Assembly (NCBI GenBank): GCA_964658305.1
Contig: OZ210885.1
Coordinates: 24,490,001-24,554,000, forward strand
Length of the DNA: 64,000 bases
Source of the DNA: Leptogorgia sarmentosa
Lineage: Eukaryota
Direction: 5' to 3'
This document shows positions 28,923-61,498 of the stretch, piece by piece. The translations under genes were made by a program, and so were the position numbers. The notes below the pieces were generated by a model. It worked only from the letters and a program-made list of their open reading frames with translations. It was not told the origin of the DNA and made no database searches. Within the stretch, counting starts at the first letter, position 1; each line of letters opens with the position of its first letter.

Positions 28923-31900
28923 TTATAAAATCTTTTGAGATTCTATCTCTTTTTGTACCATTTTAACATGGACCTCTTGCAACTTCTTCATGTGCATAAT
29001 TTTACCAGAAATCTGGCTGCTTGTTTTTTGCCCAATTGGTAAACCACTATTTTGAAGTGCAAGTGATGATGCCAAGTTGCGATAAAGAATGCTGCTGTTA
29101 ACTGCACTGTTCTGTAAAGGGCTTTCTTCCAAAATTTCCGATATTGTTATTAAAACAATTGTTTCAAGGTCTGTCCATGTACCAGAGTTTATGTTGAAAC
29201 CTTGTTCAGCAAGATATTCACATCCTTTGCTGCGGTGAAAATGTGGCTCGTTGTTTCTTTTCCTCTTGTTGGCTTGCCCTCTGGTATCTTTGTTTCCCAC
29301 TTCCAATGGTTTTCTGTTGCCACAGTTCTTGCATTTGCATGATGTAGAACAGTGTTGCGCATTTCGTAAACACGGGTATTTTGATTTGTGATTATTTGAA
29401 TCTTCACAAGCCACAGGTGACTTGTGACAGGAGCATTCTATTTTCGTCAAACTGTTAACAGCACTTTTACATTGTGAGTTACCGCACAACTTACATCTGC
29501 AGATACGTGAGCAAGTGACCTTCCTGGTAAAACAAGGGCATCTAGAGGTAGTGCACGAGGACGTGTTTATTTCACCTTTCCTTTTCCTGCCACAATTGCA
29601 TCCTTTTTCGTCATCTCTATTTCTCGTTCTTGCATGTACTTCCTCCTCTTGGGCATCTAAATGTATATTATACAGTCGTTAAGAAATATGAAACATTTCA
29701 GTGTTGACATACGGTTGTTGTGTTAAAACTAACAATGGTGGTAAATTAATTACTATTAAACATACCTGATGTTCCGTCATAATGTCCAGGCGATGTGTGG
29801 TTGAAGGTGATATAAATTGGTTTGGAAAAAATCATTTGAGTTGGAAAAAATGAAAATTGTGGTGCACTGGGGTAAGAGGTGATGACAACTATTGGCAATC
29901 CAAGAACGTTAGCGCAGACTTTAACACACAAATCTGCTAAGTTGCTGCCAAAACTGCCTTCTTGCTTAAGGTACGAAACTTCTTGGAAAAAGTGATGTTC
30001 GTCAAGGCCTATCCAATTCTTATAACGATCGACGTTATTCATTAACTCTTGTATGAAAAGCGTGCGAAGTAATGAAGCGTCCTCCTTGGTTGACTTTCCG
30101 AAGCCTATGCCTTTCAAAGTAGAAACAAAGTTTTTAATGTTTTCGTCATTGTCTAAACATAGCAATTTGGATAACTGAACGGTGATGCTATGAAAGCAAC
30201 AATTTCCGTCACCAACTACATTGTCGATTGTTAAGCTGAAAGACAGTAAATTTCTCAACAAAGTCTCTTTATTTCTTCCACTGTCAAGACAGAACTAAAT
30301 TTTAACTCAGGAGCTAAATTTTTCGTTTGTGTTCTAATCAGGCTTGCTTGTTGTTCCATTTGATGGAGAGGAAAACTTCCAAAAGTAATTCCACGATTGG
30401 CAGATTGGCTATTGAGACTATCAAACGTTTCTTGTAGTTGCAGAGCTTAACTTTTGAATAGTGTATGCGAGAATTTCATCTGTGTTCAAGTCTTCAACTT
30501 TATTTGCATTGTATATCTTTATTTTTATGTTCACTTGATCTTGAAATGTTATTGATGGGCAGTCTTGTCGAATATTTCCCTGTCGGTGCAAAAAGCAATC
30601 TGGTACACTATGTATGCCTGTATTACGGACGCCAAGAAACGTATCAGACACGCTGGAAGAATTCTGTTCAATGAAACATTCAGGTGGAACAATTGGGTAA
30701 ACTCTTTGATTTTTTGAATGTGTTCGCTTTTTTCTGCGACAGTTCCAGACATATATGCAAACTGTAAGGCAAGCTACTGCTAATTCTGGTGATATGGTAT
30801 TGGCTCCAACCAAAAGAGAACTGCGCAAATGTCTATGGAATCTTTCATTTTTTTCTGTTCCCTCACCAGGCAAAATACCTGAAAGGCAACCTACATCAAT
30901 GTGTTTCCTCAGAGTATCAATTGCTTTTGCATTCAACATACCCTCCCAGCGATAGAGAAATTGCTCTAAGTTTGCATTTATTATTTCTGGTATCGGTGTC
31001 GCTTGCTGCCTCTCGTCATCGAGATCATTGTCATTCCTGATTATCAAACCGAACTCTTTGCTAAACTGAAGTCTTCGGTTACTGTTATCAAATGTTTGAA
31101 TTACACGTTGGCAGGCATGAAAAATATCGAGTTTTACAAGTGTTTCTGCTCCAAAAACACTTTCATACAAACGCCGCATTTTGCAACAGTCGTCTAATAA
31201 TATAACTTCTATTCCAACACCTTTATCGTTATGTCGTTGTTTCAGATCAACCAAAAGATCTTTGATTTGACATGATCCATGTCACAATTTCTTCATGCTC
31301 GTTCATAACAAAAAGACAATTTTCGAACTGTTTCACAAAAGTGTTGTCATTCCGTTTAATAGATATGTGTTTACTGACTTTAAAGGTATGATCTAGCGAG
31401 AGAACAGTGCCAGTTAACTTTTGCATTTCAGTGGAATATGTATGTTTGATGGTTTCAAAATGCTCAAGAAATATCTGCATAAGTTTATCATTGCTGGGGA
31501 AAGAGTATAGCATGTCGGCATAAAATGAATCCACAATATTGTCACAATCGGTAAATGTTCTCTGATATTTTCGAAAATTAAGTAAGGGATGCTAACCGTT
31601 CTGAAATTTTCAAAAAGTTTTGTCCAAGTTCTATATTCGTCCAGATATCGTCAAGGAGGTCAGTCGTAAATGCACTTTTGTGGTGCAAGATGACTGGAAG
31701 TTGTGTAAGGGAGGTTTTGGGCAACCTGTCCAAAATTTCTTTGGATCCAGATAGATAGGTATGTTTTGGCCAGTTTAATCCATGAGGCGAATTGCACTCA
31801 TATAATCTTTGCACCAATATTATGTTACAACCTAAATCGTACGCAAGTCGTGGGTTCCAGTTACTCTTCTTCTCCAAATCAGACATCCATTTTTTGAGCT

Positions 31901-32156
31901 GCAGTCTACTATTATGAATAGGACATAACAGTTGCAGATTAAAGTGGCTAACTGGACACAAGATGAATATTTTTGGCAGGATTTTGCAATCTGGAGCGCT
32001 AGTTAATATGACATGATCAAAGCGAGGATGTTGAGGATCTTTATCAAACTCCTTTAATACAGATTGTAGCACATTATGTGCGTGTTTGCTGATAAATACC
32101 GCCCAACCAGTGGCCAAGATATAGAATACTATTACCAGTGACACAACTGTTGCCAT
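28923..32156 (-). pseudogene. MULE-like transposase fused to OTU protease, two CXC domains and a SANT-like tail
   Basis: LSLDHTFKVSK, MNEHEEIV, LLDDCC, VKLDIFHACQR, GTEKNERFHRHL; OTU VVGDGNCCFHSI...PGHYDG; intron 29765-29657; then CNCG...CPC...C...CRC..CGN and a second similar repeat, and WTDLE. Stops and frameshifts near 31578, 31250 and 30420. Confidence 0.72.
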
Positions 32157-32353
32157 AACAAGTCACTTAATTTACAGCAAAAACCAGTATTGAAAAGATA
32201 TTCGCATGTCTACTACACAACTGCGTTTAAGATAGCACAGAGATGAACAAAGGCGGTGGGCGTCTCGTCGGGATTTTCAGGTAACTCTAATGGGCGTGGC
32301 ACATGGTAAAGAAGAAAAAAAAAATTGTAATAGAAAAGTTACAAAAAAACAAG

Positions 32354-32479: not shown

Positions 32480-33956
32480 AACTGTTTCTTATGGCAAGTG
32501 TGCACACTCCGGGTTACATGTGAAACAGCAGAATTCCAAAATTTGCTAGGATGATGGATATGGATGATCTGTTACAATGCGACACCAGCACAGACACAAA
32601 TATAGACTTCGATGAAAGATTGGATCAAGCGTTGGATAATGAATTAGACCAAGCCCGTGTTTCGCATCGGTCAGACAAGAGTAAAAATTCATCAAGGCGT
32701 AAATTTGTAGTTCAATCAGGCGAAATCGGCTATATGAAAGGAGACAATTTCGTGGCTGTTTCAAATTTTACGGTGGAATGCACTGGATTCGTCAGCAAGA
32801 ACGCAAACTCGACCACTGCTGAAGGCTATTTCATTGATGTCATACCAAAAGCATCCGTACAGGCTCCAGAGAATGATTGCAGCCTAAATACAAATACAGA
32901 AAAGAGGTAAGGATTATCAAAATACTACGATTAATTATACAGTAGCTATAAAAAAGTTCAAAACTTACTATAAATTCGTCAGCTTAATTCGCAGTCGTCG
33001 GCTGTTGTGCATTATGCATGATTTCAAAATTTTGTACACCTGCATGCCTTGTAGAAAACAGCCTGAATTGTTCAGCTTCTATTTTTGCATGGAAGACAAA
33101 TTGAAAGCTGGCAAAAAATTGCAATAATTATCACATGACTATCGAAATCATTTCCAAATTTAGATCGTAAGCCCAGTAATTACTTCGGTAACCACTAATG
33201 ACAAAGTTTTACCAATTTTGTTTTCTATTTTTCTAGGGAGTCGTATTATTTGACATGGAACAGTTGACAGGACAATTCGACGGCGTGCCATTAATAGTCG
33301 CTTATTAATTGGCCAGTTTGATAGAGTTGAGATAAATTTATTTTTATTTGATTTCTTGCTTTGAAATAGACCTAAGACCTTATCATTGTGATCTTATGCA
33401 TAATAACGCTTTGTTGCGTTGCGTGCTTGTGTAACTAATTTGACATCTTTTCCCTTCAAATTAAAGTAGCTAGTGCATGTGCGCGCAGGTTAAGTTATAT
33501 TTGTAAAAACATTTTATGTATTTAATTTTTTGTTTGCGCATGATTGTATATTTAGAGTGCACCCTGGCTGGGCTTGTTAAAATGATAGGAAACCAGAGTC
33601 TACCGTTTTGGTGGGATGACGCGGACAAATTTTCCATCCTAGAGAAGTTGGCTGTCATGGCATTTAACAAAGTAATAATTTTGATAGTGTACAAGTATTT
33701 TTTAACATTCAATTGTTTAGGTTTATTAATAGGTTTTTTGTTGCTCATTCATGTTTCTAATTCTACAGTCCAAAAAGAAGACATTAAGAAAAATGGATGG
33801 GGAATGCAACAGCGCAAGAACCGTGCCTTTAGTTACTATGAATCCAACAACATTGACAAAGACGATCCTCAACAACAAAGAGAAGTTATCCAGGTAAATG
33901 TAATTTAATTCACATTTTTGACAACTATATATAATGTGGTTTGGTGTAGTTATATG

Positions 33957-36900
33957 TGTAAGAAACTGCTAGACAGTGTTATTTATAACCGGAACTGAGT
34001 TGGGACTTCCGGTTAGCACTGCGGGGGGGTTTTGTTGTTGTTGTTGTACAATTTTGAGGCAACGGGTTTGGTTGTGTTTTTTTTGGAACGATCGAGGATC
34101 AATAAAATGTCTAAATAAATCAGTGTGCGACTTTATTATATGGCGCCTAACGTGGGGCACTAGCCCAGTCGAAAGTTTGAGAAGATTATTTGCGAACCGA
34201 TCGAAATGTCAACCGGACAGCAAGCCAGTAACGAGCAGGGCGGCAGCGAAGCAACGAACAGCGAGGCGACGATTACGAACAGCATAGCAATGAAAAATTT
34301 CGAGAGAACCAAAGCGATACGAAGGGGACACCGTGGCGTTGTAACGAAATTGACTAACGAGGTTTCATCATACTACAGTACCGAAGAAAAATTACCCGAA
34401 GCGATGTTATACCGTTTAGAAATAATCGACCGAAATTTAGAAACCAAACTACGAGTACGCGAGGAGTTGAATCAACAAGTATTAGACGTTTGCGAAGTCG
34501 AAGAAATCGAAACAGAAATCGAGGAAGCCGAAGCAATTTTGTGGAAAATATTGGAGTGTAGAAAAATTATTGGCATAACACAGCAAAGGCAAGAATCGCT
34601 GCGTCACGAGGAGTTGTCACAAGCGCAAGAATCGAATTCGCAAGAGGAAATACAAGCTACACAACCACAACAACTTGAAGTCACAGCGCAAGAGGAAGGT
34701 TCGTCACACGAGGTGGTCAATCAAAGTCAAGGTCAAGGTACTGTGATAAACAATGTTAGTTCGACTCCAAATGTTAATACAAGCTCTATTACACGAACGC
34801 GTTTACCGAAGCTCACGCTACTAAAATTCAAGGGAAACATTATAAACTGGACAACATTTTGGGACTCTTTTCAATCAGCCATTCACAACAATGGGGACAT
34901 TACCGACATTGACAAATTCCGGATGAAATACGATTGCACATTGCACGAAGGAGCTCCAAAAATGTGTGGGAAATTAGTGAATTGCTCGAAATCATTAAGG
35001 TTGAAGTGGAACCACGAGAGGCGAGCAGTGCAGTGAAGGTCAAAGAGAGTCGCAGACAAAATGAACCCACAGGACATCAAAGAAACCGGCAGTCGTCAGC
35101 AGGAACGTTTACGACTAGAGTGAATGGTGTTGCTCCGGATAGTATCAAGTGCGTATATTGCAACGATAGCCACTTTTCCGCTTCATGCAAGAAATTTACC
35201 GACGCTAGGGAAAGAAAGGACATTCTGTATAGGGACGGACGGTGTTTCAACTGTATAAGAAAGGGGCATCAGACAAAGGATTGTCAAAGAGCTAAAACAT
35301 GTCGTGTGTGTAGTGGAAGACATCACCAGTCAATTTGCACGAGCCAGAAGGAAACCCCGAGGCCTAACCCAGACAACGAATCGCGGCAACCCCAGGCGAA
35401 GGCGGCTCAATTAGACTCTGTTACCAAGACAGTGACAGTAAAGGGCGAAAGAGTAGGGAAAACGGTTCTTCTGCAGACAGCTACAGCCGTCGTGTTCAAT
35501 GAAAGCAACTCCAAATCGGTACCTGTTAGAATCTTGTTCGACAATGGATCTCAACACTCGTATGTTACATCCCAGTTGAAGTCTCGTTTGGGTCTGAAGC
35601 CAATCAAAACAGAGACATTGCGTCTGAACACCTTTGGTCAACCTAATTACAGGAAGGAGAAATGTTCGGTTGTGAAACTTTGCTTGAAGAAACGCGAACA
35701 GGAAATTGACCTAGTTGCATTGGACTACCCCGTCATCTGTTCTCCACTTCCAACGAAGGTTTGCATCGAGCATCCGCATTTAGAGGGCCTAGAGCTGGCG
35801 GACGATTGTGAAGGCGCGTCGGCCGATATCGATATCCTTGTAGGATCGGATTATTATTGGGAGTTAGCTCGAGGGGAAGATGGCCCGACCGCAGTTGCCA
35901 GTAAGCTGGGATGGTTACTGTCTGGACCGCTGGGGGATACAGAAGAGAGCTCAAACCTTTCAGTATCCAATCTAATTATCGCTGGAAATTGCAATTCGCC
36001 CGAGAACGCAACACTAAGTGACCCTATTGTCGAAGCACTACGGCAGTTCTGGGATGTGGAGACGGCTGGCGTAATAGACAAGACTCCACCATACGACCAA
36101 GTGATAGACGACATCCGATTTGACAAGGATCGTTATGTTGTTGGACTTCCCTGGAGTTCAAAACTGTAATCCCGAATGTACCAATTACGAACTGAGTCAC
36201 AACCGTTTGAGATCATTGCACTACAAGCTCAGAAATCAACCAGATATTCTAAAGGAATACGATAGCATCTTAAAGGGACAACTCGAATCCGGAATTATAG
36301 AGGAGGTACCCAAGGACGAAATCGAGATACGAGAACCGAGTGAAGTACACTACACACCCCACCACGCGGTCGTCAGGAAGGACAAGGAGACAACGAAGGT
36401 TAGAATTGTGTATGACTGTTCGGCCAAACCAACGTCGCAGCAACGTTCGCTAAACGACTGCATGGAAACTGGTCGTAATTTTATTCCAAAATTGTTTGAA
36501 GTGTTGATCAAGTTTAGAAGCAATCCAATTGGCCTCGTGGCAGATATCGAGAAGGCGTTCCTCATGGTCGGAATACGAAAGGAAGATCGCGATCGGTTGC
36601 GGTTCTTGTGGTTTAAGCATCCCGAGAGCGCAAATCCGGAATTGGTGCAAATGCGTTTTTGTCGTCTCGCTTTTGGATTGAAGTGTTCCCCATCCATGCT
36701 AGGAGGAACAATTATGCACCATTTAAAATCGTACAAAGAGCGCTTTCCTGACATTGTAGAGATAATCAAGGAATCCCTGTATGTGGATGACCTGGTGTCT
36801 GGATCAACAAGCGATGATAAAGCGTTCGAAATTTATGAGAAATCGAAGAAAATATTCGCAGATGGCGGGTTTAACTTAAGAAAGTGGAGTTCGAATTCGA

Positions 36901-39862
36901 AGGTCCTAATGGAGAACATAAGAGGAAGTGAACGTGTCGCCGGAGACGGACAACCACCACGACGTGAACACGAAACACAACCAATGACTACCGAAGACGA
37001 CGAGACGTACGTCAAGTATCAAGTTGGTCCATACAACAACCAGGAAGAAAACGACACCGTGAAACTGCTTGGAATTAATTGGAACACTACGCGCGATGAG
37101 TTCTTCTACAACATGTCCGAACTGATTGAGTACGCCGAGACCTTGCCAGTCACTAAGCGTTCTTTGCTGAAGTTGACGGCAAAGATATTTGACCCGCTTG
37201 GGTTGCTCAGTCCTGTCACGATCAAGATGAAAATGATGTTTCAAATCTTATGCAAGGAGGGAGTCGATTGGGACGAACAACTTCGTGGAGACGTGGAAAT
37301 CCAATATCGAGGTTTCCTGGTGGACCTACATAAGATAAACCGGTTACGAATTCCCAGATGCTACTTTATGCTTGCTAGTACGCCAGTGTCAATACAATTG
37401 CATGCATTTTGTGATGCCTCGGGGAAGGCGATGGGCACAGCCGTTTATCTCAGATCAGCTTACGAAGATGGTATTGTACAAGTGCGTTTAGTCGCTTCGA
37501 AAACGAAGGTAGCGCCGATTAAGAGACAGACTATCCCTCGACAAGAACTGCTCGGGGCAGTTATCCTCGCCCGACTGGTTGACACAATCGCGAATGCCAT
37601 ACCTCGAGAAATCGAAATATTTTATTGGACAGATTCAATGACCTATTATATTGGATCCTGAACCTCAAGCAATGGAAGCAGTACGTGCAACATCGCGTAC
37701 AGCAAATATGCGGCTTGACAAAGGGAAGAGTGTGGCGACATTGCCCAGGCCATCTGAATCCGGCCGACCTACCATCGAGAGGAATTAGTGGAGCAGATAT
37801 TGTGGAGAGCAGTCTGTGGTGGTCGGGTCCAGAATTCCTTCTCAAAACTGAGGACCAATGGCCAGTGAATCCGGTAATCGACAAGGGTGAAGCTTTCGAC
37901 GAATTAGTTAGACACCCGGCTCCGACAACGTTCATCATGATCAATCAGACTGAAAGAACGGGAGGCGTAGATGTTGGCAAAATTATTGTCTGCGAACGAT
38001 TCAGCAGCCTGAATTCACTACTTCGAGTAACAGCGTATGTGTTTAGAGCAGTCGTGTCCTTCAAACGGAAAGCCAAGGACCACTCGAATCAATTGACTAA
38101 GGCACGGGAGTTGACGGCGGAAGAAATCAACACGGCAGAAACCTGTTGGATCAAGTCAGTTCAAATGACGGCGTTTGATGAGGAACTTGCGTATCTAAGT
38201 GGGAATCAGAGATCTAGTACCCCGTCACTCATGCCTCAGTTGGGACTGTTTGTAGACCGGGATGGTGTCCTCAAGAGCAGGGGTCGAATCTGGCACGCGG
38301 ATCTGCCACAATCAACCAAGACTCCTGTTCTGTTACCAGCGAAGCATGGGTTTGTCCAACTGGTTATTTTCGCCTTCCATGAAAGGGTGAAACATAGCGG
38401 AATAAGAGATACCTTGTCCACTGTTAGAGAAAGATTTTGGATCTTACGAGGGCGTGAGGCGATTAAAAGAGTCATAAGGAAGTGTGTGTTGTGTCGAAAG
38501 TTACAAGGACAGCCATTTCAACCCGAGGTTTTGCCAGATTTACCAGCTGATAGTGTATCGGAGGATCCTCCCTTTCACCATACAGGACTAGACTTTGCTG
38601 GTCCTTTGTTTGTGAGGCGATCGAAGGAGTCCGAAGAAGAGAACGAAATGGTCAAGGCGTATGTGTGTTTGTTCACATGCCAATCAACGAGAGCAATTCA
38701 TTTGGAACTGCTTCTACGTCTAGACGTTCTATCATTTTTGCAAGCGTTCCGCAGATTTGCCAGCAGAAGGGAACTGCCATCAACCTTGTTGTCAGACAAT
38801 GCGAAGAATTTTAGGTCGTCGTCTAAAGACGTAGCGAAGATTGTACGATCTGATGAAGTGAAGAGATATCTCGCCACCAATAGAATCGCGTGGAATTTCA
38901 TAGTGGAGCGAGCGCCTTGGTGGGGGGGTTTCTGGGAGCGCCTGGTAAAGAGCGTCAAGGGGTGTATCAAACGAGTTATTGGAAGAGCGTCATTATCGTT
39001 CGAAGAAATGAGGACAGTGCTCACAGAAGTGGAAGCAATCATTAATGCACGCCCTTTGACTTATTTATATGACGACGAGGAATCTATTTCATATCCGTTA
39101 AGTCCGTCCCATTTGATAAATGGTCATCGAATTACTACGACACCGAACAGCGAGCACTTTGACGTAGTCAGCACGTACAAGACCCTAACGAGAAGAGCCC
39201 GACATCAGAAGAACATTTTGCAAATGTTTACTAACCAATGGAGGAAAGAGTATTTGACCGGATTGCGGGAGCAGCATCGTATTAAGGCGAAGAAGCAAGG
39301 GGGACCATCTATATCCGTTGGTGACGTTGTAATTGTAAAGAACGACTCAACGTCAAGGTTGTTTTGGAAGCTTGCGATAGTGGAAGAGTTGATACAGGGA
39401 AGTGATGGGAAAGTTTGAGCAGCAATGGTCAAGGTGTCTAACGCTGACAAGAAACCGTCTCGACTGCGACGAGTCATACAACATCTATATCCAATCGAGA
39501 TGAAATGCGAGAACCAAGAAGGTCAGGAAGGACAAGAAAAGGCGGAGCTTGAACTGGAAGATGCGACAATAAACTGGAAAGGCCGCGAAGAAAGACAGCT
39601 GAGAGAGGAGAACTACAACGAAAGAAGAATATGTAGGGACTTATTGATCACCCCGTGGTGAATCAATCCGGGGGAGTGTAAGAAACTGCTAGACAGTGTT
39701 ATTTATAACCGGAACTGAGTTGGACTTCCGGTTAGCACTGCGGGGGGGGTTTGTTGTTGTTGTTGTTGTACAATTTTGAGGCAACGGGTTTGGTTGTGTT
39801 TTTTTTGAAACGATCGAGGATCAATAAAATGTCCAAATAAATCAGTGTGCGACTTTATTATA
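33957..39862 (+). mobile_element. BEL/Pao LTR retrotransposon, both LTRs present, coding region decayed
   Basis: LTRs 33957-34140 and 39677-39862; 5-bp TSD ATATG; PBS TGGCGCCTAACGTGGGGC (tRNA-Lys-like) at 34141; PPT before the 3' LTR. Confidence 0.96.
34206..39661 (+). pseudogene. BEL gag-pol polyprotein with a gag deletion, stops and frameshifts
   Basis: LPKLTLLKFKG (DUF1759-like), triple Cys-His knuckles, LFDNGSQ protease, ADIEKAF and YVDDL RT, FCDASG RNase H, GLDFAGP and APWWGGFWER integrase. Confidence 0.93.
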
Positions 39863-40979
39863 ATATGGTTCATCATCAACTGCCATAAATTCTTGTTTCA
39901 GAACGTTCTCAAGGATCGCAGTAATTCCATAAGTGTGGGTGTGGTGCTGGAACTGAGAGAAGAATATAGGAATATTAGAAATGATCCTATGTTTCTTGAG
40001 ATGACGGATGCCATAGAAGCTGTAGAAGAAATGGACATGCGAGCACAGTGCAATTATGCACTGCTTTTTTACAGTACAATCAAGGTATGGTCAATATTTT
40101 TAACTGGTTATGAATATCGAAACGATCAAACGAATTTGCGAGCTTTTCATGGACACAATCAATCGCCCTGAACTGAACGAGTTCAGTGGATATTGTGCAT
40201 TATAGATTAATTATTGCAAAGTTTGGTTACATTGTAAAGTATGCGAATTTGGTATTTACTTGTGTTATGCACGCGAATTTTATTCCGGTTTTTCCGCGCG
40301 TAATACGAGTATATCATTTCCTCATTTTAAAAGGTTCTCATTAAATATATACGTTGTATAATAAATAAATGCAATTGCCTAATACTTCTTTAAAATCACA
40401 GATTTTGCAAAAAATTGGAATGACGGAAAGTCTTTTTCCCTTCATGAAAGACTGGATGGTGAACGTTCTGTTACCAGCGCATCTAAAGCTTGTGGGAAAA
40501 TGTGAAACAAATATTGAGAACCCGGCAAATGAAGCCTTGTACAAGGCGATGCGAGATGATATCTCTCAAACTTGCAACTTGGTTATAGGAATAGTAAAAA
40601 AAGCTATTTCTAATCCGAAAGTTTGTTGTTTGATGGATAAAAATGGAGTATTTTGGTGAATTTTAATTAAGTCCTAAATTAATGCTGTACCATGTATTAT
40701 ATATGATTTCATTTCTGGGCAAAAGATTTTTTTAACCCAATGTTAAGTGCAAGGAAGTGTTTTTGTGGTCAGGTGTTTGCTTTTAACGTTCCCAAGGCTC
40801 TTTCGTTCATTGGGTCGAATTGTTCAGGTGATCTTTTAAGGTCATATGTCCGCAGTCAAGGTGTTGGATGCAACGGAGTGAAGTTTAATGTTGATAACAA
40901 ACAGTATGTGGGAACGCACATTAGATATAGTACTCTGCCAGAAAGCGTACGTGAGGATCTTCTCAAAGGTGAGTATGTG

Positions 40980-43900
40980 TAGTCCAGCTGTTAAACGACA
41001 TAAAATAGCCAAATTGTTCGTTTTGTGATAAAAGCATGAAACTTGGCTCAAATACTCATCTCGATGTGCTTGTTAATTTGTGATATGGAGGCATTTGAGA
41101 TATCGCCTATATTTCCTGTAATGCGCATGTCAAAAATCCTACAACGTGAAAACGAGGCTGAGCAAAGAAAGCTCGTTTTTATGAGTTTTATCCATTGAAT
41201 AAAGTCGAAAATAGTTGTAAAACATTGTTTAAGGATTAGTTTGTATTATTAGGTGTTTTAAGAATTTTCACATGATCACCCACGTGAAGACGGTAGGAGG
41301 TGCTGTTTCAAACCTGGTTGTAAAATTCCTCTAAACTAAAACACTAAATTATGTTAAAGTATATTTTTGTCCTTTACTTGTTAAAGCTGGAGAAATTGCA
41401 TATTTCATCTCAAAAAACTTTATTCAGCGGAGGGGAGGTGGGGGGGGGGGGTGATTGAGAGGTTCATGTATTTTAGTGTCCAGTCCTATCGCGTTTTTCA
41501 AGATGGCGACTTGCAATGTCAAAGGTTAATGTTACCGTTCATCTACAACAACTGTAAGTAAAGTTCTTGATAGTTTTTTTTTGGTTTAAAATGTTCACTA
41601 TTCAATCATAACACTTTAAATTGCTTAAATATTACAATTATCAAAAAGAAAAGACAATACTTCTATGAAATAGCGATAATTTAGTACAGTTTTATCGATG
41701 TTGAACTCAGTATTATAGTTGACACGGTAAAATATAATATGTATGGATGCATGAATGGATAAATCAACTTTATTTCAAAAGGATAAATAAGTATGAGTTA
41801 CAAAACGTTTTTGAATGAAAGCTATTGGCAATTAAATTTTAAAACCATCCAAAAGGAATTGTATAAGTCCATGATGATAGATACAAATCATTCAAGCTCT
41901 TATTAAATTTAATTACGATCTCATTTATATTACGTCGCATTACGACACTTTTTATTTTACTTTTTATTTCACTTGTATTCACTTAAAGGGTCTTGTGATG
42001 GCTACCCTCAGTAATCAGTCTACAATACCTATTAATTGGAAACTCTGTGTCATTTGTCAAGTTAAAACTAACGAGCCTCTACAATGTCCTGCAAATTCAA
42101 AAAGAAGTGACGTGGGAGCAGGATACAAATCTTTAGTCGACAACATAAAGTTGTTTCACGATGTCGGTGAGATCCCATTAAAAGTTGATCTAAGTAAACT
42201 GAATGATGGTTCAGGAGTTGAAAATTCATTACTCCAAAATAAAGCTTCATGAGCTTCATGGCATAAGTCATGCAGGAACAAATTTAACATTACTGAGATC
42301 AAAAGAGCTCAAAAACGAAAGGCATGTGAGAATGAAAGACGACCCAAAGAAAGCAGCCCATGTAGGACGAGGTGGACAAGCTCATTGCATTCTTTTAAGG
42401 GGAAGAGTAGTGAACTTAGATGTTTCTTCTGCGATGAAGTTGATAGTAATGCTAACCTCCATCGTGCATCGACTGAAGTAATAGATAAAAGAGTGAAAGA
42501 ATGTGCTGTCCAATTAAAAGACAGGAATCTCCTAACCAAACTGGCTGCTGCCGGTGATATGGTAGCCCTAGAAGCAAAATATCACTCCCGCTGTCTGGCA
42601 TCGTTGTACAATCGCTACAGGAAAATGGCCAACACAAATAGTGATAAAGCATCAGGACAAGAAAAACGCCTGCACGGAATTGCTTTTGCAGAAATCATTT
42701 CCTACATTGAAGAATTCTTTGAAGAGAGAAATACGAGTAGTAATGTTCCCAGTCTCAGGCTAGCAGATCTTGCGAAGATGTACATGACAAAACTCAAAGA
42801 ACTAGGTGTTGATACAAGTCGTGTCAATACCACAAGACTAAAAGAAAGAATACTGTCAACTTTACCACATGTGTCAGCACATCCGCAAGGAAGAGACATA
42901 GTATTAGTTTTAGATCGTGATGTTGGGGGCGCCATAAAGTTGCTAAATGACCAAGACACTGATGTTGAGGCAATGCATCTCGTCAGAGCTGCCAAAGTAA
43001 CACGCAAGGACATCCTGAAGCAGAATCAGTCATTCAAAGGAACATTTGACACTGACTGCCAAGAGAACGCAATCCCTCAGTCTCTTAAAGCTCTCATTAA
43101 TTTTATTTTGAGAGGGCCAGGTACCCAAAGAAACACAGCCATCAAAGAATCAGTAGAAGTAAATGAAACACAAGCCTCCCGTTCTATATCTCAGCTAATT
43201 ATCTACAACACAACCATACGTCAGGCTAAAACACCCCAAAATGCTACACGCCATAAGAGAGAAAGAGAAACACCTCTCCCAATATATGTTGCACTCAAAA
43301 TACATGGCCTTACTAGAGGACGAGGTTTGATCGACGCACTATTCAACCTTGGACTTTGCATTTCCTATGACAGAGTGTTAAGCATATCAACAGACATTGC
43401 GAATGCCATGTGTGAACGATTTGACAAAGATGGTGTAGTCTGTCCTCCAGTATTAAGAAGTGGAATCTTTACTACAGCTGGCTTTGATAATATTGATCAT
43501 AATCCGAGCTCCACTACATCTCGAGATTCATTTCATGGCACAGCAATTTCACTAATTCAACACCCGACAAAGCAAACACCGGGAACTGTTAGAGAAGCGA
43601 CTGTTATAGATGGCCGCCCTCAGAAAGAAAGGGAAATTTCCTCACTACCAACCCAATTCAGTGATGTCCAGCCATTAGTTTTATTACAGCGAGATCTGTC
43701 ACCTCCACCACTGATCGGGCAGCTCCCAGACGTAGAGAATGTGAACAATTATGCATACAAGAAAGAAGACCAGTGGCTTCTTAATGTAAAGGAACTTATG
43801 AGGAAAGAGAAACTTGAATCAGATGATAATATTTCATGGGCTGCTTACCATGCATCAAACGAACGGGAACTGAACTATGAACCAGCTATTACTTCACTGA

Positions 43901-46782
43901 TGCCCTTGTTCCTAGAAAACGCACATTCTGCTCCAATGATTCTTCACGGTATGAATGTCATCCGCTCCGCAGTAGGGCTAGTAAATCCAGGTCAGACTCC
44001 CGTTATCGCAATGGACCAGCCGCTTTTCGCTCTGGCGAAACAGATCCAGTGGCAATGGCCCCACACTCATGGAGAAGACAAACTGTTGGTGATGTTTGGA
44101 GGTTTGCATATTGAGATGGCAGTGCTAAGAACATTGGGTAATTATTGCATAATAGTTATTATTTTTCCATCTATTTAAACATTGTTACTGATTTAAATGT
44201 TTTTCCTTTTTAATCTCATATATTGTTAGCGAATTGATCATTGCGTTTTTAAGAACTTTGTATTATTATTTAGGTAAGTGGCTAGATAAGAGTGGATGGA
44301 CAACTGTCATGGTAAATGCTGGTGTTGCAACCCCTGGTGTTGTCGACTCTTTCACCTCAGCTAAACACATCACAAGAACTAGAAGAGCTCATCAAGTATC
44401 TTCCGCCTCCCTGTACATTCTTCAGCAGTGTGCATATGAAAAGTACGTTACAAAAGCTGAAGATAGAGTCCCCCTGTCGTTTACAGATTGGAGAGATAAG
44501 AAATCAGAACAGTGCCCACAATTTCTCTACTGGTGCAGAGTCATGGAGCTGCAGCTACTTTCCTTGCAGTTGGTTAAAGCATTTAGGACAGCGGATTTCA
44601 AGTTGTATGTTGACTCCCTAACGAAGATGATGCCTTGGATGTTTGCACTTGACCAGACAAATTATTGCAGATGGTTACCAGTCCATATCCGTGATATGCA
44701 AGAGCTTCCTATCAAACACCCTGATGTGTACGAGAAATTTACCAGTGGCTTCTTCGTTGTTCATAAGACGCAGAAACGATTCTCTGCTATGGCACTGGAC
44801 CAGGCACACGAACAGGAGAACGCAGTGATCAAAGGTGAAGGTGGGGCGGTAGGACTTACGGAGAACCCAGGCGCTCTAAAACGCTGGATGATTTCTGGGC
44901 CCGAGATTGCCAGAATCGTCAACGAATTTGAAAAGACAACAACAACATCCTCTAATGACAGTCTAAAGCACCACGAACAGTCATACAGTCATCGAGTGGC
45001 ATTTCAGAAGGATATACAGTCAGTGGTTGACAGTTTTGAAGAGCTGGGAAATCCCTTTTTGGAGGAAGGTAAAGATCTGCTAGCAGTTGACACCAAGGAT
45101 ATCATGAACAATGACGTTGTGGAAGCTGTGAAGAATGTTGAGAAAATAGGCCAAGAAAAGCACTCAACGTATGTAGAATGTAGACTGAAACGCAGGACAA
45201 CACCCATCACAGAGCCTATCACGAAAAACAAGTTGTCTTTATTTAATAATTCATACGAGAACGTTCAATCCAAGGACAAATCAAAGATTCTTCAGTTAAA
45301 AAATGACTGTTCATTGTTCTCTCGGTTGTATATTGCGTGTCAAAACCGAGACGGAAACCTTGAAGAGTTCTTTAAGCACGAAAATCAGCCTTGGCCACCG
45401 TCACTAGCCGACAAAGGAGAACTCAGAAAAGGACAGAAATCTGACCTAGTGAAATGCCTTGAGGCCCTTCAGACAAACATCACCAATGAAGCCCCCGTAG
45501 TGGAGAGTGTGGTTGTAGATGGCGCAGTTGCCGTTCAAATGTTGAAACCAGGCACAGCACGTACCTTTCAAGAGTATATTGATACTGTTTTCAAGCCCTA
45601 TGTCCTCAAGCAACTTGAACATGTCAAGAGAGTAGACATCGTATGGGATGTGTACAGAGAAGACTCACTGAAAACAGGCACAAGAGAAAAGAGAGGTAAA
45701 GCAACACGTCGCAGAGTGTTACCAACAACTGCTATCCCAGGCGACTTGAGCTCTTTTCTTCGTGTGGATCAAAATAAAGTAGAACTCTTCCACCTACTAT
45801 CCCAAGAAACGGCCTCGTTGGAAGTAGAACATCGAGAAATATATACCACCATCGATAAAAATGTCTTACACTCTGGGTCATGTCGAAATGATCTATCACC
45901 TCTACAGCCATGTACACATGAAGAAGCAGACACAAGGATCATGTTACATGTGAAGGATTCAGCTGTCTGTGGACATCAAAGTATCATGATACGAACCATT
46001 GACACTGACGTTGCTGTATTAGCAATATCAATGAATCTAATCTAAAAGCTAATCTAGACTGTACAGCCTTATGCCTCTGTGCTGGGCATTCTCTCCAAGA
46101 CTCCTGATCAGGCGATGTAAGTTACGTTTGTGGTTACACAATAACAAAATCAAATTACGTTTTAGTTCATTTGAGTCACGTGTTTTAGCACGCGATAATT
46201 TTAACTCTCTCACAGTCTTTCTAGATTAACCCCTTAAAACAATTTCAGCAATATTTGACGTCAAAATGGACTAGGGACGTGACATTTTTGGTCAGCCTCG
46301 TTTTCATATTATTTTTTTGGCATACACATTTAAAAAGGTAGGCCTTTTCTGAGATAACGTCTGTCTCCATATCACAAATTAACAAGCACATCGAATTGAG
46401 TAAGTATGGCAGGTTTTATGCCTTTATCACTGAACGATCTATTTTTGTTTTAAGAGCCTTCTATTTCGTTTGAGTCACGTGGTTGACCATGTGTTATTCA
46501 CTAAAACGCTCTCACAACATTTCTCCATTTTCTAACTCCTTAAACAATGTTTTACAACTATTTTCGACATTATTCAATCGATAAAACTTATAAAAACGTG
46601 CTTTTTTTGCTCAGCCTCGTTTTCATGCTGGAGCATTTTTGACATGCGCATTACAGGAAATATAGGCGATATCTCAAATGCCTCCATATCACAAATTAAC
46701 AAGCACATCGAGTTGAGTATTTCTGCCAAGTTTCATGCTTTTATCACAAAATGAACAATTTTTCACCTTAACAGCTGGACTA
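40980..46782 (+). mobile_element. Academ DNA transposon in an intron of the ATPase-like gene
   Basis: Termini TAGTCCAGCTGTTAA...TTAACAGCTGGACTA with about 300-bp imperfect TIRs; 3-bp TSD GTG; duplicated subterminal block at about 46150-46480. Confidence 0.92.
41998..46108 (+). pseudogene. Academ transposase with XPG-like domain, disrupted
   Basis: FDNIDHNP, SFHGT, MDQPLFALAK, FGGLHIEM, DQAHEQEN, HEEADTRI, DTDV; intron about 44139-44273; in-frame TGA at 42250; deletion near 46040 before the terminal CTALCLC. Confidence 0.9.
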
Positions 46783-47109
46783 GTGACAATGTATTAACTT
46801 ATTTGTACATGTATGAAATTGAAAAATTGCTATGCATATGTAATCGAAATTTATTCAAAATCAAAACACATCACAGCACTATAAAGAGACATTTAACCGA
46901 TACTTAAAATGGTGAAAATCAATGTTACGTATAATTCAATAGGTCCTACGGTTTTAGGTGTTTTTTTTATAATTCTACAGGTCCTACAATAGGCCTGCAA
47001 ACATCGTATACCATGCGACATTTGCATTTAACATCATTATATGTGTATTCTATTATACTTTTTAGCTTTCGATATTCAGCATGGTACCAGTGACAGTAAA
47101 TCCATCAAC

Positions 47110-47485
47110 GAATACGTTGAACCCACCAGAAAATCTGTTGAACCCACCAGAAAATACATTGGACCCACCGGAATATACGTTGAACCCACCTGAAAAGACG
47201 TTGAACCCACCAGAAAGTACGTTGAACCCACCAGAAAGTATGTTGAACCCACCAGAAAATACGCTGAACCCACCTGAAAATACGTTGAACCCACCTGAAA
47301 AGACGTTGAACCCACCAGGAAATACGTTGAACCCACCAGGAAATACGTTGAACCCACCAGGAAATACGTTGAACCCACCAGAAAAGACGTTGAACCCACC
47401 AGAAAGTACGTTGAATCCACCAGAAAAGACGTTGAACCCACCAGGAAATACGTTGAACCCACCAGAAAAGACGTTGAATCCCCAG
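47110..47485. repeat. 21-bp minisatellite, about 18 copies
   Basis: Consensus GTTGAACCCACCAGAAAATAC. Confidence 0.97.
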
Positions 47486-48671
47486 GTGAACACATGAGGT
47501 CAGTTCACAAGGCTGTTTCATGCTGTTATAGCTTTATTAGTAGTTCATGCACAAGCCAGCATAAAAGTGGTCCGCGAATGATAATTGGAGTGCACCCAAT
47601 ATGTTTTGTGAAGTATAGTTTTACGTACGGTTTGATCTCTGATCTAATATACAATAAGATTACTCGCTCTCCTTTTATACGAGATGATAGTTGATTTAAG
47701 CTTCATTCTCATCACATATCATTTCATAGAGTTCTCGAGCTAGCTCGTAATCTAATTATAAATTAGAGGAAATGGTCATTTATCGTACCATTGAAACATG
47801 ATTGAAGGAATAATCAAAGACGAAACTGATTGAAAATTGTGAAATCGTCGCAAGATGTATCGTAAATACTGCAGTAAATACTTTTTAAATGCTTGTTCTT
47901 TTTTCTTAGGTGGAATGAACAAAAAGAAAAGAAGTGCATTGAGTGACTCGCTAACGGACTACTTCAAGCCATCAGCTAAAAAAAGACGTTAATATGTTGA
48001 CAAAATCATTACCACTGCCACAGAGTAATTACACACAGGGGTCTCACTTGGCGAAAAAATACAGGAGGAAAAAATCCATGCCCTTAATTAGTTTACCTAT
48101 TTGTTTGTAGCCAGCCTCTGGGTGCGACATTGCTGGCGGCCAGACAAAAACACCTTGCGCTTTGTTGAAGCGATAACCTAACCTACCCTGTGTGTGTTAC
48201 TGCGGTTCATGTTATCTTTTTAATACGAAGTAGTAAATGACTTGTTTAAAAATAAACTGCTTCTTTATTGGGACGATTTCAAGTTTGTTTTTTCACGTAG
48301 TGGTAGTGGTAGCGAGTTGTGTATGGTGACCATGGTCTTAAACCTGAAGTTTGCGACGACTTACAGTAGTCACACTATGGGCGTTCAACAAAACTTAGCA
48401 GTACAAATTTTCCCATGGCAAACTTGAAAGTCTTGTATTCAGTTTAAATTCTTTTTATTAGGAACTATAATCAAGAATTAATACATGCCCCAATTTCGGC
48501 GTGATGCCTTGTGTCACTTTAGCATCTTCTTTTGCCAATTGATAGTATTTTGTTTTGGGTGTGTCAAATTGCGTACAGGCATGCAGCAATTCTATCACGT
48601 AAGACTGGGGCTAACAAAGTCTTGAAAAAAGGAATGAATGGAAAACATATTTTAGAATCAAGGGCAGAATA

Positions 48672-48792
48672 CTATTAGTACTATGGAGTACTATGTAGGG
48701 CTATGTACCATTATGGAGGGTTAAGAAAAGATATTCGTAATTCATGATTACGAAGATGTATAGAATGCTATGTAGTACTATGGAGTTCCATG
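48672..48792 (+). repeat. Degenerate internal copy of the element B right-TIR segment plus the first 10-bp units
   Basis: TATGTAGGGCTATGTACCATTATGGAGGGTTAAGAAAAGATATTC...ATGTATAGAA resembles 57500-57567 in the same orientation. Confidence 0.8.
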
Positions 48793-51700
48793 AACAAGGG
48801 GGAATTTCGTTCTCGACCAATCAGTGCATTTGTTGACATTTTTGCGCTAAGCCAATCAGAACGCGTAAATCGCTATTTTGTAAACAAAGATGGGTACAAA
48901 TATATACTTTACTCTTCGGCTTTGTTGCCATTGGAATCTTGATATTTTATTCTGAAATTATAATATGTTGTTTAGGAAAGATTTTCCTACAATATTACCG
49001 TGGCGATTTGTAAATAATGGCGATTTCGGGGAGATATGCACGTCCAAACTTTGCCGCGCGCAAGCATAAATAATGCCCTTCGAATCCACCAACCTTTTGA
49101 CATCTTAACTTATTAACTTGTTAATTTCCCGTTTCTAAACATGGTGAATTCACGATCAGAGTGTCATGAGTCATGACATGCACACATGACAAACGGATGC
49201 TTTGCGAACGTTTTCAATCGCTTTTATTTTGCGAAGGAAAGCGAATGATATTCTGAAACTCACCGAACTTCAAGACATCGAAGTCTCAAACCTATGCCAA
49301 CATTTCACCCTCGATATCAAATTGAAGACAGTCTGTGTGTCGGTTGTATTTTGGAATTCGCCTTCTTCATCAACATCAAGCGACTCGAGAAGTGACTCGT
49401 CCTCGTTGTCATCTTCTTCATTGTCTGTCAAAGTTTCCTCATCATCGGGCCCTTGACTGTCGTCTGATGAAGGAGCGAACTCATGGACTGCTTTATTTGC
49501 CGCTTCTCCGAGTGATGCAGCTTTCGACATGAGGAACTCTTGGCAAATCTTGCACACGCTTATGTCTGGAAGGTTGCACTGGAGATGAAAGGAATGCCCA
49601 CAGCCAAGAAAGACGCGCCATAATGTGCTTGTGTGAGTGCAATGGACGGCATCACACACTCTGGTTTAAATCACAGAGTAAGAATAAGGTAAGGACTGAT
49701 CTATATATTTTTATTATTATGACCGATTATATGTAACTTACTTTTGTGGATTTGGTGACATTTCCACTGAGAAAAATCCAAGTGGGAGCACTCTGTTGGT
49801 TACAACTTGGTCACCAAATAAATTGGGTAAGACCCATCTGCTCATGTCCTTCCTCTGCCTGTGCTGCCGTGGTTGTTGGGTGGCTTGTCCTGAGTGGGAG
49901 TGGATTAGCTCAAACTTTTTAACTAAATATTCAGCTGCTTTGGTTTTTAAACAATCAATCCGCTTTCTGCTGAAGTTAAATTTTCTGGGTGGGACAAATG
50001 ATGACTGAGACTCCTGCATTTCTGTCTTGCATGCATCAATCTCTCTGGCCTTCTCCTGAACTTGCTCTGCCATGTCTGTGTCGTTTGTCCTTGCTCTGAG
50101 CACAGAGTGGAAGTTTTCCACAGGGTATTCGTCCAAAGCTACCAAAAATTGTTGGATGACGTGGTTCAGTGGGTGATTGTTTTCATGCCAATAATGGAAA
50201 TTAGAAAGAGCAATAAGCAGTGCTTTATCGTAATGCCGGCGACAAAATACCATCATCATAACCCAACAACGGAATAATGATTTGCAGTAGAGGTTGTAAT
50301 TACTGCCCTTAAAGACAACTGAGTAAATGCTTAGCACAAGTGGCACATAGTTATCGATGAGGTTGACTAAGGTAAGATATTCAATGTCCTTGCAATTTGG
50401 GAAAACTGACATAATAGTGTCTCGAATAAGAGTCCAACCCCCATAGATGACCTCTAGGAGTAAGGATAGTCGCCAAGCTTTCGGTTTTTTTGCCAGCTTT
50501 GCCTTTGTGCCGAAGAGGAATGAATACAGTTCAGCAAATACAGTGTGGAACTGGAGGAAAACAGACTCTCGGGAGTTTAAGGAAATATGTAGTGGGCCAA
50601 TAAGTGGGATGACGTTGTTGCAGACAGTGGGAAGAGATACAGATGCAGTGTTGTACACAAGTTGTCGCATGAAGAATTGCATAGGCCAATCTGCAGGAAA
50701 GGGAGCTACGAAATTGCTCAGGTAATCTTCTAAACCATTAGCCAATATATGTTTGAAAGCAACCAGGACATCTTTGTAGGATTTCAAGGGCAATTTGAGA
50801 CTGTCAACAAGCTTGGTGTTATCCATACGTCGCATCTCTCTGATTTCGGTCTGTTGATAGTCATGAATTGCAACTCGCTTTTTTTCTGCCTCGGGGTCAA
50901 AATACTCGGCAACTGCCCAATCAGGCATTGTGCTGGCATATGTTTGGGAACAAGTGCTCATATGCTCCACTATTAACTGTTTCAGTGAAGTTTCCTCAAC
51001 AGGATTAGCAGGTAATATAGGGTGAATGTAATCATTAGGAACAGCTTGAATGTTTGGAAAAACTTTGACAAGGAGAGTTGTGGTGTGCACTGCTTGGGTT
51101 TGGGTCTTACTCTCAGGACGGTGCTTCGTATGAATGTTATGATAATCGTCAATACAAAATATAATAAATTGTTGCTTTTCTATTACAGTTTGAAAGAATA
51201 CTTTCACTCTATCAAGGTGGGAAGCTGATGAAGTTAGCATAGAGGCTTTCATGGTACGTGGGTGTGCAACAATCCCCAGATTTCGCAGCGATGCAAGTCC
51301 TTGCTGGCTAATACCGAACTGTTGAAGGGTTCTTGCCAGAGATAATTGGAACCAGTTAGCACGCTGTGACCTGGAATACATCATGATGTACAGTACAACC
51401 ATAACTCTTAGCTTTGTCAACTGCTGCCGCTCACCTGACATCCGAGTTGAACTCATTGCATTGATGAATGTCGAAAAGAGATTTGAAACTCCAGCCTGTG
51501 TACAAATTTCTTGAAATTGATCAGGATCCATTACAGGGGGCTGTGGATCATATGCAAGAAAGAATGTTTTCAACTTTTCTAGGTCACCTTCAATGTCGAT
51601 GATATCAGCAGTTTTTCGAAGCAGCTCTTCATATTCACCCTTTGAAATGACAGTTACTTCTGTTGTCTGGCACTCAACACTTGTCTTTGTCTTCAAAACT

Positions 51701-52985
51701 TCAAATACCTCGGAATTTTGACTTGGGGAACTCAGTGTGACAGTTGACTCAGTGCTTTGGCTACCAGATAACTGAATGGTGGAAATACTTGCAGTTTGGG
51801 TGTGTTCACTACTGGGTGATGAGTAGGAGGCGGAATGGACAGGGACACTTGCAGTCGCAGCCACATCTTCATTTTCTTTCACAAACTCACTTGGCAGATA
51901 AGTCGATAAACTGTTCAGCTACATTAAGAAAATATTTACCTGTTTATTACTACTATGTTAATTCCCAAATTACTATAGAATGCGAATGCGGGCCACACAC
52001 TGGCAAGTAATGGTAACTTGGCAAAACAATAGTTTTGACTTTCGGTACCTGCCAGAGTACTGTATTAATGGTGTGAAACCAATACAGTATACATTACTAA
52101 TGTCCACTCCAATGTAGTCCAAATGTTGTTTATGTCCATACAGCACATGTAACCCTAAACTTTTTTCATGTCACTAAGTCTCTTTCATTTTTTTTTCAGA
52201 AAATACTGACTTACAAGATATATCAATAATATTCCAATATACATTATTATTCCATTAGTATTCCCCTTACCTTCATTTCAATACTGTCCATATGTAGTCG
52301 TTTTGGCAAATGACGAGTGATATTTCTCTTTTTGAGGCACTCGTGAATACAATTTTTGCAAAGTTGGCTGATTTTTTTTGACGTTTCAATTTGTTTTTCA
52401 CATGCCAAAAAAATAGAAAGCGCTTGTCCCAACTCACACCAACCAAACGCTTTTAATTTTACCATCTTGGAGTCTTCATACCCTTCAGACCACTCGTTGT
52501 GAAGAGGGTTATTGCACTTTTTTCCAAATCTAGGCATTTTATTGTACGAATTTCTCAAGCGGATAACTATAGAACAACGTATAGACTTCGAAAGACTTGT
52601 GTGTTTGGAATTCATTATTTTCCCGTTGGCGGGAAAATATAGCGTTCGAAAGAACACTATATCTAATTTCGATTTAATTTCGAGTTTGGTGGATTCGAAG
52701 GGCATTATTTATGCTTGCGCGCGGCAAAGTTTGGACGTGCATATCTCCCCGAAATCGCCATTATTTACAAATCGCCACGGTAATATTGTAGGAAAATCTT
52801 TCCTAAACAACATATTATAATTTCAGAATAAAATATCAAGATTCCAATGGCAACAAAGCCGAAGAGTAAAGTATATATTTGTACCCATCTTTGTTTACAA
52901 AATAGCGATTTACGCGTTCTGATTGGCTTAGCGCAAAAATGTCAACAAATGCGCTGATTGGTCGAGAACGAAATTCCCCCTTGTT
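48793..52985 (-). mobile_element. Unclassified 4193-bp DNA transposon X, apparently intact
   Basis: 300-bp TIRs 48793-49092 and 52686-52985 (AACAAGGGGGAATT...; one mismatch seen); exact 9-bp TSD AGTTCCATG on both sides; inserted in the 10-bp satellite. Confidence 0.93.
49270..52537 (-). CDS. 944-aa putative DDE transposase with N-terminal Cys/His cluster and C-terminal RING-H2
   Basis: Exons 52537-52271, 51918-49742 and 49660-49270 splice GT-AG in phase (2835 nt, no stops). Motifs CIDDYHNIH, PADWPMQ, IGPLHISLN, EYPVENFHSVLR; RING CDAVHC...CGHSFHLQC...CKIC; acidic tail. Confidence 0.8.
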
Positions 52986-57505: not shown

Positions 57506-57866
57506 AGGGTTATGTACCATTATCGAGGGTTAGGAAAGGATATTCATGATTATGAACATGTATAGAACCCTTAGATACATTACAGCTGGGATCCACAATA
57601 GATCAAGACTATGAAGTAGTTACCAGGTTTTCAGACCAGTTGTCATGGAAATGGCATCAGCAAATGACGAATTTTTGGCTTCACTTTTTGTTCGCGTGCG
57701 CTTCCTCCAGTATGGTGGCCGAGAACTGCCATTTCGAAAATTGAGTTTATTTTCATTTTATATCAACGTGGCCGAGAACTGCCAACTGCCAAATTATCTA
57801 TACCCATTTGTCCTTAATATCCATCATATTACCCATAGTTACCCTTAGTTATCACAAGCTGTTAAG

Positions 57867-59358: not shown

Positions 59359-59420
59359 ATAAACATTTGGCATAACTTACCACTTATTATAGTATTTATA
59401 TTTTGCAAATAATTTTAATA

Positions 59421-59446
59421 GTTGTTGTTGTTGTTGTTGTTGTTGT
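59421..59446. repeat. (GTT)n microsatellite
   Basis: About 8 GTT units. Confidence 0.9.
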
Positions 59447-59644
59447 GGTGATAAGACACAGAGCCATTGGTACATGCAAACAATTTTGCTGTACAATTTG
59501 TCAGAACGTTGCATTATAACGTTGACTGATCTGTGATCAGAGACTGTACTTTTATATGTGTATCTTGTTACTTTTGTTAAAATAAAATGAATTGTAGAAT
59601 ATTTCAGTTGAATGTTTGAAAGATGTCAATATAGTACATTCGAA

Positions 59645-61173: not shown

Positions 61174-61498
61174 ATTGAATGAAACAAAGGGTACTGCAAT
61201 AGTAACTATGGGTAATATGATGGATATTAAGGACAAATGGGTATAGATAATTTGGCAGTTGACAGTTCTCGGCCACGTTGATATAAATGTTTTTTAAATT
61301 AAAATAATAAACAATAAAGTTGTATTTTTGTGCTTTATTTTTTTTTGTTTTTAACTGTTATTTAAGAACTTTTTGATAAGTTTTAAAAGTAAATATGAAA
61401 ATAAACTCAATTTTCGAAATGGCAGTTCTCGGCCACCATACTCCAGTAATATAATATAGCTCAGTGGGAAAAACACATTGAAACAAGGTAAAACAAAT

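Follow-up and report, generated by a model that had tools for sequence, protein, structure and literature searches.

Little is understood about the movement and multiplication of 10-30 kb cut-and-paste transposons in animals, and a 64,000-nucleotide stretch of the Leptogorgia sarmentosa genome (GenBank assembly GCA_964658305.1, contig OZ210885.1, positions 24,490,001 to 24,554,000; hereafter the window) raises the question of whether such an element may carry a helicase of its own. The window is repeat-rich, animal-type DNA that contains a 30.9-kb element, element B (26750-57624), in which two genes stand head to head: a DDE transposase gene with DUF6729 and OTU domains on the minus strand and a partner gene for an ATPase on the plus strand. 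We are confident that the partner gene is correctly identified and placed in a two-gene DDE transposon. Our preferred reading, held with a confidence only a little above even, is that it represents a decayed gene for a ring helicase of the Cch/DUF927 type, the second gene of the element, whose intact versions probably assist transposition in active elements.

The exons of the partner gene span 32551-47992 on the plus strand and are given below together with their matches to L005, a metagenomic locus that carries both genes, and to P0033, a 783-aa gene model of Acropora millepora.

32551..32906, plus strand: exon 1, acidic leader and N-terminal beta domain (L005, E 2.6e-11; P0033, E 1.7e-11)
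33258..33329, plus strand: remnant of the Walker A exon without its splice donor, EQL..GVPLIVAY continued in a different frame by IGQFDRV
33556..33671, plus strand: Walker B exon (FWWDD), 116 nt, length and phases as in L005
33769..33893, plus strand: sensor 1 exon (VPLVTMN)
39902..40084, plus strand: exon encoding lid helices and, by prediction, the arginine finger (SRIAVIP)
40402..40655, plus strand: exon extending the helical domain, 3' junction not settled
40728..40968, plus strand: exon of the C-terminal domain, predicted winged-helix-like position (P0033 residues 481-557, E 5e-13)
47066..47485, plus strand: tail exon (E9) of 21-nt repeats (VEPTRKY) with three in-frame TGA stops
47910..47992, plus strand: last exon, basic tail resembling a nuclear localization signal (NLS) and ending AKKRR*

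An earlier reading of the same DNA (hereafter the original prediction) had proposed a helicase-like gene with its motifs in AAA+ order, a lost Walker A site and a basic C-terminus, and these features were all recovered. The motifs GVPLIVAY (33282), LPFWWDD (33600) and RTVPLVTMN (33817) lie on the plus strand, and LSRTFSRIAVIP arises by splicing across an intron that bears a BEL retrotransposon (donor after 33893, phase 2; acceptor before 39902). The accompanying claim of phase-compatible splicing across the BEL and "Academ" insertions held with qualifications: five junctions (E4/E5, E5/E6, E6/E7, E8/E9 and E9/E10) show GT-AG borders with compatible phases, and the BEL element and the TAG-ended element are both located in introns, but splicing alone does not yield an open frame in the window copy. 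Unlike these five junctions, E7/E8 has splice sites that are not settled, and a segment of about 150 residues that relatives possess between exon 1 and the Walker A exon is unmatched in the window.

The decay comprises two frameshifting deletions, one after VAY and one of about 28 codons near 39930 (after RIAVIP), together with the loss of a splice donor near 33327 and the three stops in E9. The Walker A exon of L005 reads GVPLILAWGKPVSGKTT...LIGQQ and contains GKPVSGKT; in the window IGQFDRV directly follows VAY in another frame, so that about 49 nt including the P-loop were deleted. Contigs of two other sequencing runs, X4 and X5, agree with the window up to position 33305 and then continue with GKPVSGK (X4) and GKPISGKSSA (X5). 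Run X1 contains a second, differently broken copy that has an insert at the Walker A site and retains the splice donor lost in the window, and a contig of run X7 spans 33478 to 33940 and then continues into the sequence beyond the BEL element, thus representing the empty BEL site. Selection is not evident in the substitutions of the other copies (4 of 7, 2 of 6 and 8 of 20 listed sites are synonymous). The window gene is real and, given the Walker A deletion, the deletion after RIAVIP and the three stops in the repeat exon, it is a pseudogene of a once intact P-loop ATPase.

Membership of the gene in a larger ATPase family was assessed with a profile built from 73 relatives and no window sequence. 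The window exon peptides, joined in order with X at the breaks, score 106 bits (E 2.3e-25 at Z = 1.8e9), and the match is not due to chance, since none of 200 shuffled exon orders reaches the single-domain score (maximum 100.5, median 40). Exon 40728-40968 matches the family profile at E 3e-6. Using the L005 exon as a query, we found P0033, which matches five window exons, and a further model, P0034; a word-based search with one window exon returned no relative (four candidates), and the partner exons in the window have no Pfam match, in a scan where one translation was in the wrong frame. A HMMER search identified 341 clusters of relatives at 50% identity; full-length relatives, 10 of which were looked up, belong to Clytia, Sanderia and Branchiostoma. 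The closest named relatives of the transposase and of the ATPase gene are both cnidarian. No ATPase relative was found among 21 viral-contig candidates or in phages and no transposase relative among 38 viral-contig candidates; an origin from Polintons or viruses thus has no support in these searches.

Intact homologues retain the P-loop that the window has lost, as the original prediction required. Among the best 150 relatives, counting only rows aligned over each site, the Walker A pattern G-x4/5-GK[ST] is present in 46 of 63 sequences, of the 39 rows printed at Walker B 38 have two acidic residues and 21 fit the strict pattern hhD[DE], and the sensor-1 asparagine is found in 32 of 33; the arginine finger was assigned by position only.

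Two affiliations had been suggested for this ATPase, DUF927/Cch-like or superfamily 3 (SF3), and the first one stood. ESM Atlas features point to DUF927 clusters (score 0.97; Pfam annotation on 12-20% of the members of the top clusters), and sequence searches of the PDB gave only non-significant P-loop matches. The AlphaFold model of a Clytia relative, P0044, built with an alignment (pLDDT 79.4), has its best structural matches in Cch of SCCmec (PDB 5dgk, Pfam DUF927 PF06048; Foldseek E 1.4e-11, Z 19.0, 454 aligned residues, root-mean-square deviation 6.8) and in Rep of SaPIbov1 (PDB 8tch; E 1.8e-9, Z 18.1). Both matches lie within residues 6-571 of the model, that to Cch covering 6-570, and extend over the N-terminal, AAA+ and C-terminal domains. 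The D5/SF3 proteins score clearly lower (D5/E5, the next match, E 7e-5), and the match to MCM (Z 12.9) is confined to the AAA+ part. A model of P0033 folded alone (pLDDT 34.5) was not used. On this structural basis the partner is predicted to be an AAA+ ring helicase of the Cch/DUF927 type, decayed in the window.

The same gene pair recurs outside the window. A metagenome scan with the transposase alignment yielded 75 loci, most of them on contigs too short to judge the partner. The L005 transposase shares 35% identity with the query P0001; on the strand opposite to it, window exons E1, E3, E4, E5 and E6 are matched in order (E 2.6e-11, 0.08, 1e-10, 1e-5 and 0.4, respectively), and the intron phases and head-to-head layout of the window are kept. 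A scan of genome contigs added five loci (L076-L080, in G001-G003) from prokaryote-labelled records with long intron-bearing contigs; these contigs are likely animal host DNA, as judged from the introns and the eukaryote-type neighbouring genes.

Three complete elements (G001:C30, G003:C18 and G002:C4) contain both genes together with GG termini, inverted arrays and 8-bp target-site duplications (TSDs), so that ATPase homologues lie between the terminal repeats of three elements other than B and do not occur only as single-copy host genes, the outcome that the original prediction required. The G001 element (L076) has a 916-aa open transposase frame and, facing it head to head, an ATPase gene (GEPDVGKT), the pair being flanked by inverted 9-bp arrays, and the G003 element (L086) is a complete 11.8-kb element with a 1074-aa open transposase frame and the partner gene; L078 is a decayed pair in tandem layout. 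In the L076 element, 600 bp from the 3' end of the transposase are also repeated in inverted orientation within the left arm (2687-3289 and 10147-10746), the two copies forming very long fold-back arms.

When the same three records were searched with the ATPase only, all five matches were near a DDE-type transposase gene: three beside DUF6729 transposases (L076, the query itself; L078, already known; L086, new) and two, L087 and L088, head to head with KDZ-like genes (weak CxC4 and weak CxC5 matches, respectively). These last loci occupy L087:9012-18255 and L088:9139-19449, and in L087 a THAP-Harbinger element lies between the two genes. In two gene models of the jellyfish Sanderia (P0026 and P0054), parts of the transposase and of the ATPase are joined in one protein.

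In other transposase clades the place of the partner is taken by DUF3987 ATPases (SF6, MCM-like phage helicases), a family separate from the window gene and without a tblastn match to the window. They stand head to head with the transposase in L025 (E 8e-17) and L065 (E 8e-10) and downstream of it in L070 and its near-copy L074, and C-terminal DUF3987 pieces are found in L027 and L064. On the transposase tree (FastTree, 70 rows, 6 loci left out) the partner types fall on separate, distant branches, and the order of events is not established. DUF6729 transposases are repeatedly, but not obligatorily, accompanied by a Cch-type ATPase. A weakly supported exon-1-like head-to-head exon in L037 and L059 (hhalign probability 44%, E 2.4e-4) was not recovered in a second comparison, in which one profile row was in the wrong frame, and was not counted. 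The partner-gene place of a near-identical relative of the L027 element (L029:1865-5323) is occupied by an intact intronless ORF for a 1153-aa coiled-coil protein.

Element B itself comprises the following features.

26742..26749, no strand: left TSD AGGTTTTC, 8 bp, same 8-mer at 57625-57632
26750..28141, plus strand: left terminal inverted repeat (TIR, starting GGTAAC) and 10-bp subterminal array
27004-27768: miniature inverted-repeat transposable element (MITE) interrupting the left arm
28926..32162, minus strand: broken DDE transposase gene in five open reading frame (ORF) pieces, DUF6729 family by homologues
33957..39862, plus strand: BEL/Pao long terminal repeat (LTR) retrotransposon nested in a partner-gene intron, TSD ATATG
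40980..46782, plus strand: nested TIR element with TAG termini and 3-bp TSD GTG, in a partner-gene intron
48793..52985, minus strand: nested TIR element in the right arm, 9-bp TSD
52992..57624, minus strand: right 10-bp subterminal array (4.5 kb) and TIR
57625..57632, no strand: right TSD AGGTTTTC

Without its four nested insertions (the MITE, the BEL retrotransposon, the TAG-ended element and the element with the 9-bp TSD) element B measures about 14.2 kb. Its left and right ends match at 242 of the first 260 bases, with a single mismatch within the first 203, and tandem 10-bp arrays lie inside both ends. Five of the five elements with both ends read (window, G001, G002, G003 and L080) have 8-bp TSDs and GG termini. 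Tandem arrays with units of 8-40 bp also occur near the transposase in L002, L008, L013, L022, L025, L027, L028, L032, L038 and L045; the unit differs between families, and subterminal arrays look like a family hallmark. The TAG-ended element has no Pfam match, and the name Academ comes from the original prediction. The nested element of the right arm has arms of about 300 bp, the TSD AGTTCCATG and a 726-aa minus-strand ORF without a Pfam match. A diverged internal copy (82%) of the terminal sequence of B is located at 48670-48765, directly after the partner gene and about 9 kb inward of the true right end.

The window transposase shows the motifs DHTFK (31393, minus strand), DDCC, DxxH (DIFH) and GTEKNE in this order, followed by OTU and CXC-like domains. 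Its 32 homologues, 31 of which were aligned, carry DUF6729 and OTU domains and share DHTFK, D-[DNK]-CC, DxFHA and NE, with D355 and H358 of DxFHA invariant. The only Pfam content of DUF6729-type transposases is DUF6729, OTU and a weak TCR/CXC match.

The label "MULE-like" in the original prediction proved loose. The transposase family does have the DDE triad with the C/DxxH signature of the MuDR/Mutator superfamily, but neither the window ORFs nor the full-length homologues match Pfam MULE or Transposase_mut, the OTU domain and CXC tail set it apart, and the 8-bp TSDs differ from the 9-11 bp usual for MuDR/Mutator. It resembles KDZ/Zisupton elements by eye in its D-x-x-C and FH motifs, in the neighbouring ATPase family, which KDZ-like genes adjoin too (L087 and L088), in the 8-bp TSD (PMC12730594), and in large size, nested insertions and accessory genes (PMC12477816). 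In contrast to KDZ/Zisupton elements, the first motif is DHTFK and not DGN, no Pfam KDZ transposase or CxC1-6 match was obtained in the window ORFs or the intact transposases, and the accessory genes described for them in the literature consulted are TET/JBP, not helicases.

The closest analogues of the ATPase, Cch and SaPI Rep, are likewise mobile-element proteins whose genes adjoin that of the recombinase (PMC7581432, PMC10061031). Both are self-loading helicases, SaPI Rep binds iterons near its gene (PMC7581432), and in SaPI/SCC systems a primase usually adjoins the helicase (PMC10061031, PMC4889955). The gene described here differs in being eukaryotic and spliced, with a low-complexity tail and an NLS-like end, and in its partner, a DDE transposase with TIRs in place of a serine or tyrosine recombinase; genes for a primase, a polymerase or a single-stranded-DNA-binding protein were not found here, and sequence identity is only 11-12%.

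Among known DDE elements, the AcademH helicase is SF2/RecQ-like. KolobokH carries a RecQ helicase as well, and these two are the helicase-bearing DDE elements named in the literature consulted (PMC9587614, PMC10045372). Element B shares with them the presence of a helicase gene in a DDE element and differs in the AAA+ ring type (by motifs and fold), in the separate spliced gene, and in its transposase and TSD. No MULE with a ring helicase and no mention of DUF6729 were found in the literature searched, and the papers found on DUF3987, or on DUF927 with transposons, concern bacteria, archaea and phages, judging by their entries. A DUF6729 transposase paired with an ATPase of the Cch type is apparently an undescribed combination; it was not found in the literature searched, which did not include Repbase, Dfam and most subscription journals, and the element may already be catalogued there unannotated.

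What, then, would the ATPase do? If its identity and place are right, a role as a helper of transposition is reasonably probable. The protein would form a ring and load on or near the element ends, where the tandem subterminal arrays could act like the iterons bound by SaPI Rep. It would then use ATP to unwind or remodel DNA at the ends, and the remodelled DNA might allow excision, copying or repair of the element by the transposase together with polymerases of the host. Because the ATPase would act in trans, partnerless and dead copies could still be mobilised. A broader proposal is that an undescribed group of animal DDE transposons (DUF6729 transposase, 8-bp TSD, GG termini and subterminal tandem arrays) encodes self-loading ring helicases of Cch or DUF3987 type, loads them at the arrays to copy itself, and is thus partly replicative and island-like, with the helicase swapped among several eukaryotic transposon superfamilies; this is speculative, and we regard it as rather unlikely.

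Several observations weigh against a helicase acting as a dedicated helper. The strict Walker A pattern is missed by 17 of 63 relatives, and the Walker B site reads DD or ED and not DE, although both variants occur in active SF3 helicases. Direct comparison with Pfam DUF927 gave at best E 6.5e-4 (19.9 bits versus a cut-off of 22.6), with only 2 of 73 family members at E <= 0.01, and the modelled protein P0044 is a relative of unread genomic context with the variant P-loop GTPGTAKS. The 10 metagenome loci with at least 2.5 kb read upstream include 3 with a partner (L005, L025 and L027) and 7 without, and L013 and L080 have no partner gene between two visible ends. The type of partner (Cch or DUF3987), its side and its orientation vary, which also fits a hitch-hiking gene, and a weak ATPase tree (3 of 16 branches starred) mixes copies linked to DUF6729 and to KDZ-like transposases.

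Self-replication is the strongest of the alternatives, if an unlikely one: the ATPase would be a self-loading replication initiator like SaPI Rep, and an excised circle would be copied by host primase and polymerase before reinsertion. The best fold matches, which extend over the whole length, are indeed initiator-helicases, and the long arrays at both ends recall the short repeats that SaPI Rep binds near its gene (PMC7581432). On the other hand, the replicative function considered in the original prediction stays conjectural: some copies lack the ATPase, and none of 75 ORFs (at least 75 aa, from four elements) matches any PHROG, so that no primase or polymerase was seen, in a scan that is insensitive to short exons and missed the ATPase exons too. 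Integration by the usual cut-and-paste route is indicated by TIRs, a DDE triad and short duplications, and the clean 8-bp TSDs in all five elements agree with it. A transposition helper is therefore likelier than self-replication.

We consider it more doubtful that the ATPase gene merely travels from one large transposon to another, taking no part in transposition and persisting because it benefits itself or the host, like TET/JBP in fungal transposons. The occurrence of two unrelated ATPase types on either side and in either orientation, the presence of the Cch-type family beside KDZ-like transposases, the copies without a partner, and the frequent passive transfer of accessory genes between superfamilies (PMC12730594) would all be accounted for. 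Yet the recurring passenger is every time an ATPase of ring-helicase type from a mobile-element family, divergent elements conserve their intron phases, and none of the five ATPase matches in the three records stood alone.

It appears quite improbable that the ATPase captures targets or assembles the transpososome in the manner of IstB, MuB or TnsC, without unwinding DNA, even though IS21, Mu and Tn7 are known to combine an AAA+ ATPase with a DDE transposase. Helicases (Cch, SaPI Rep, MCM and D5) head the structural matches, and no IstB, MuB or TnsC chain is among the matches listed, which leaves room for such a role. A host gene hit by transposon pieces or captured once, as its introns and the Clytia, Branchiostoma and Acropora copies filed as uncharacterised host proteins might suggest, is largely refuted and very improbable, given ATPase genes between matching TIRs and TSDs in four separate elements, several divergent copies in Clytia, and the second, differently broken copy in run X1.

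If the helper role is true, animal transposons would have gained a new accessory function, a ring helicase of their own that resembles those of bacterial islands and links them to the replication modules of SaPI/SCC. The analysis also supplies a family name for hundreds of animal proteins filed as "uncharacterised" and for DUF6729; the window copy is dead and matters only as a pointer to this family.

Outside element B the window contains a Gypsy-like LTR element (7603-13165), whose identical 138-bp LTRs indicate a recent insertion, and two rva_4 integrase elements (5002-7630 and 57709-61442), which we take to be IS3EU-like, one opposite a weak HECT-like ORF and the other opposite an alpha-kinase gene. 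Decayed transposase ORFs lie at 21163-23361 and 61569-62714 and are, judging from their motifs, presumably hAT-like and Harbinger-like.

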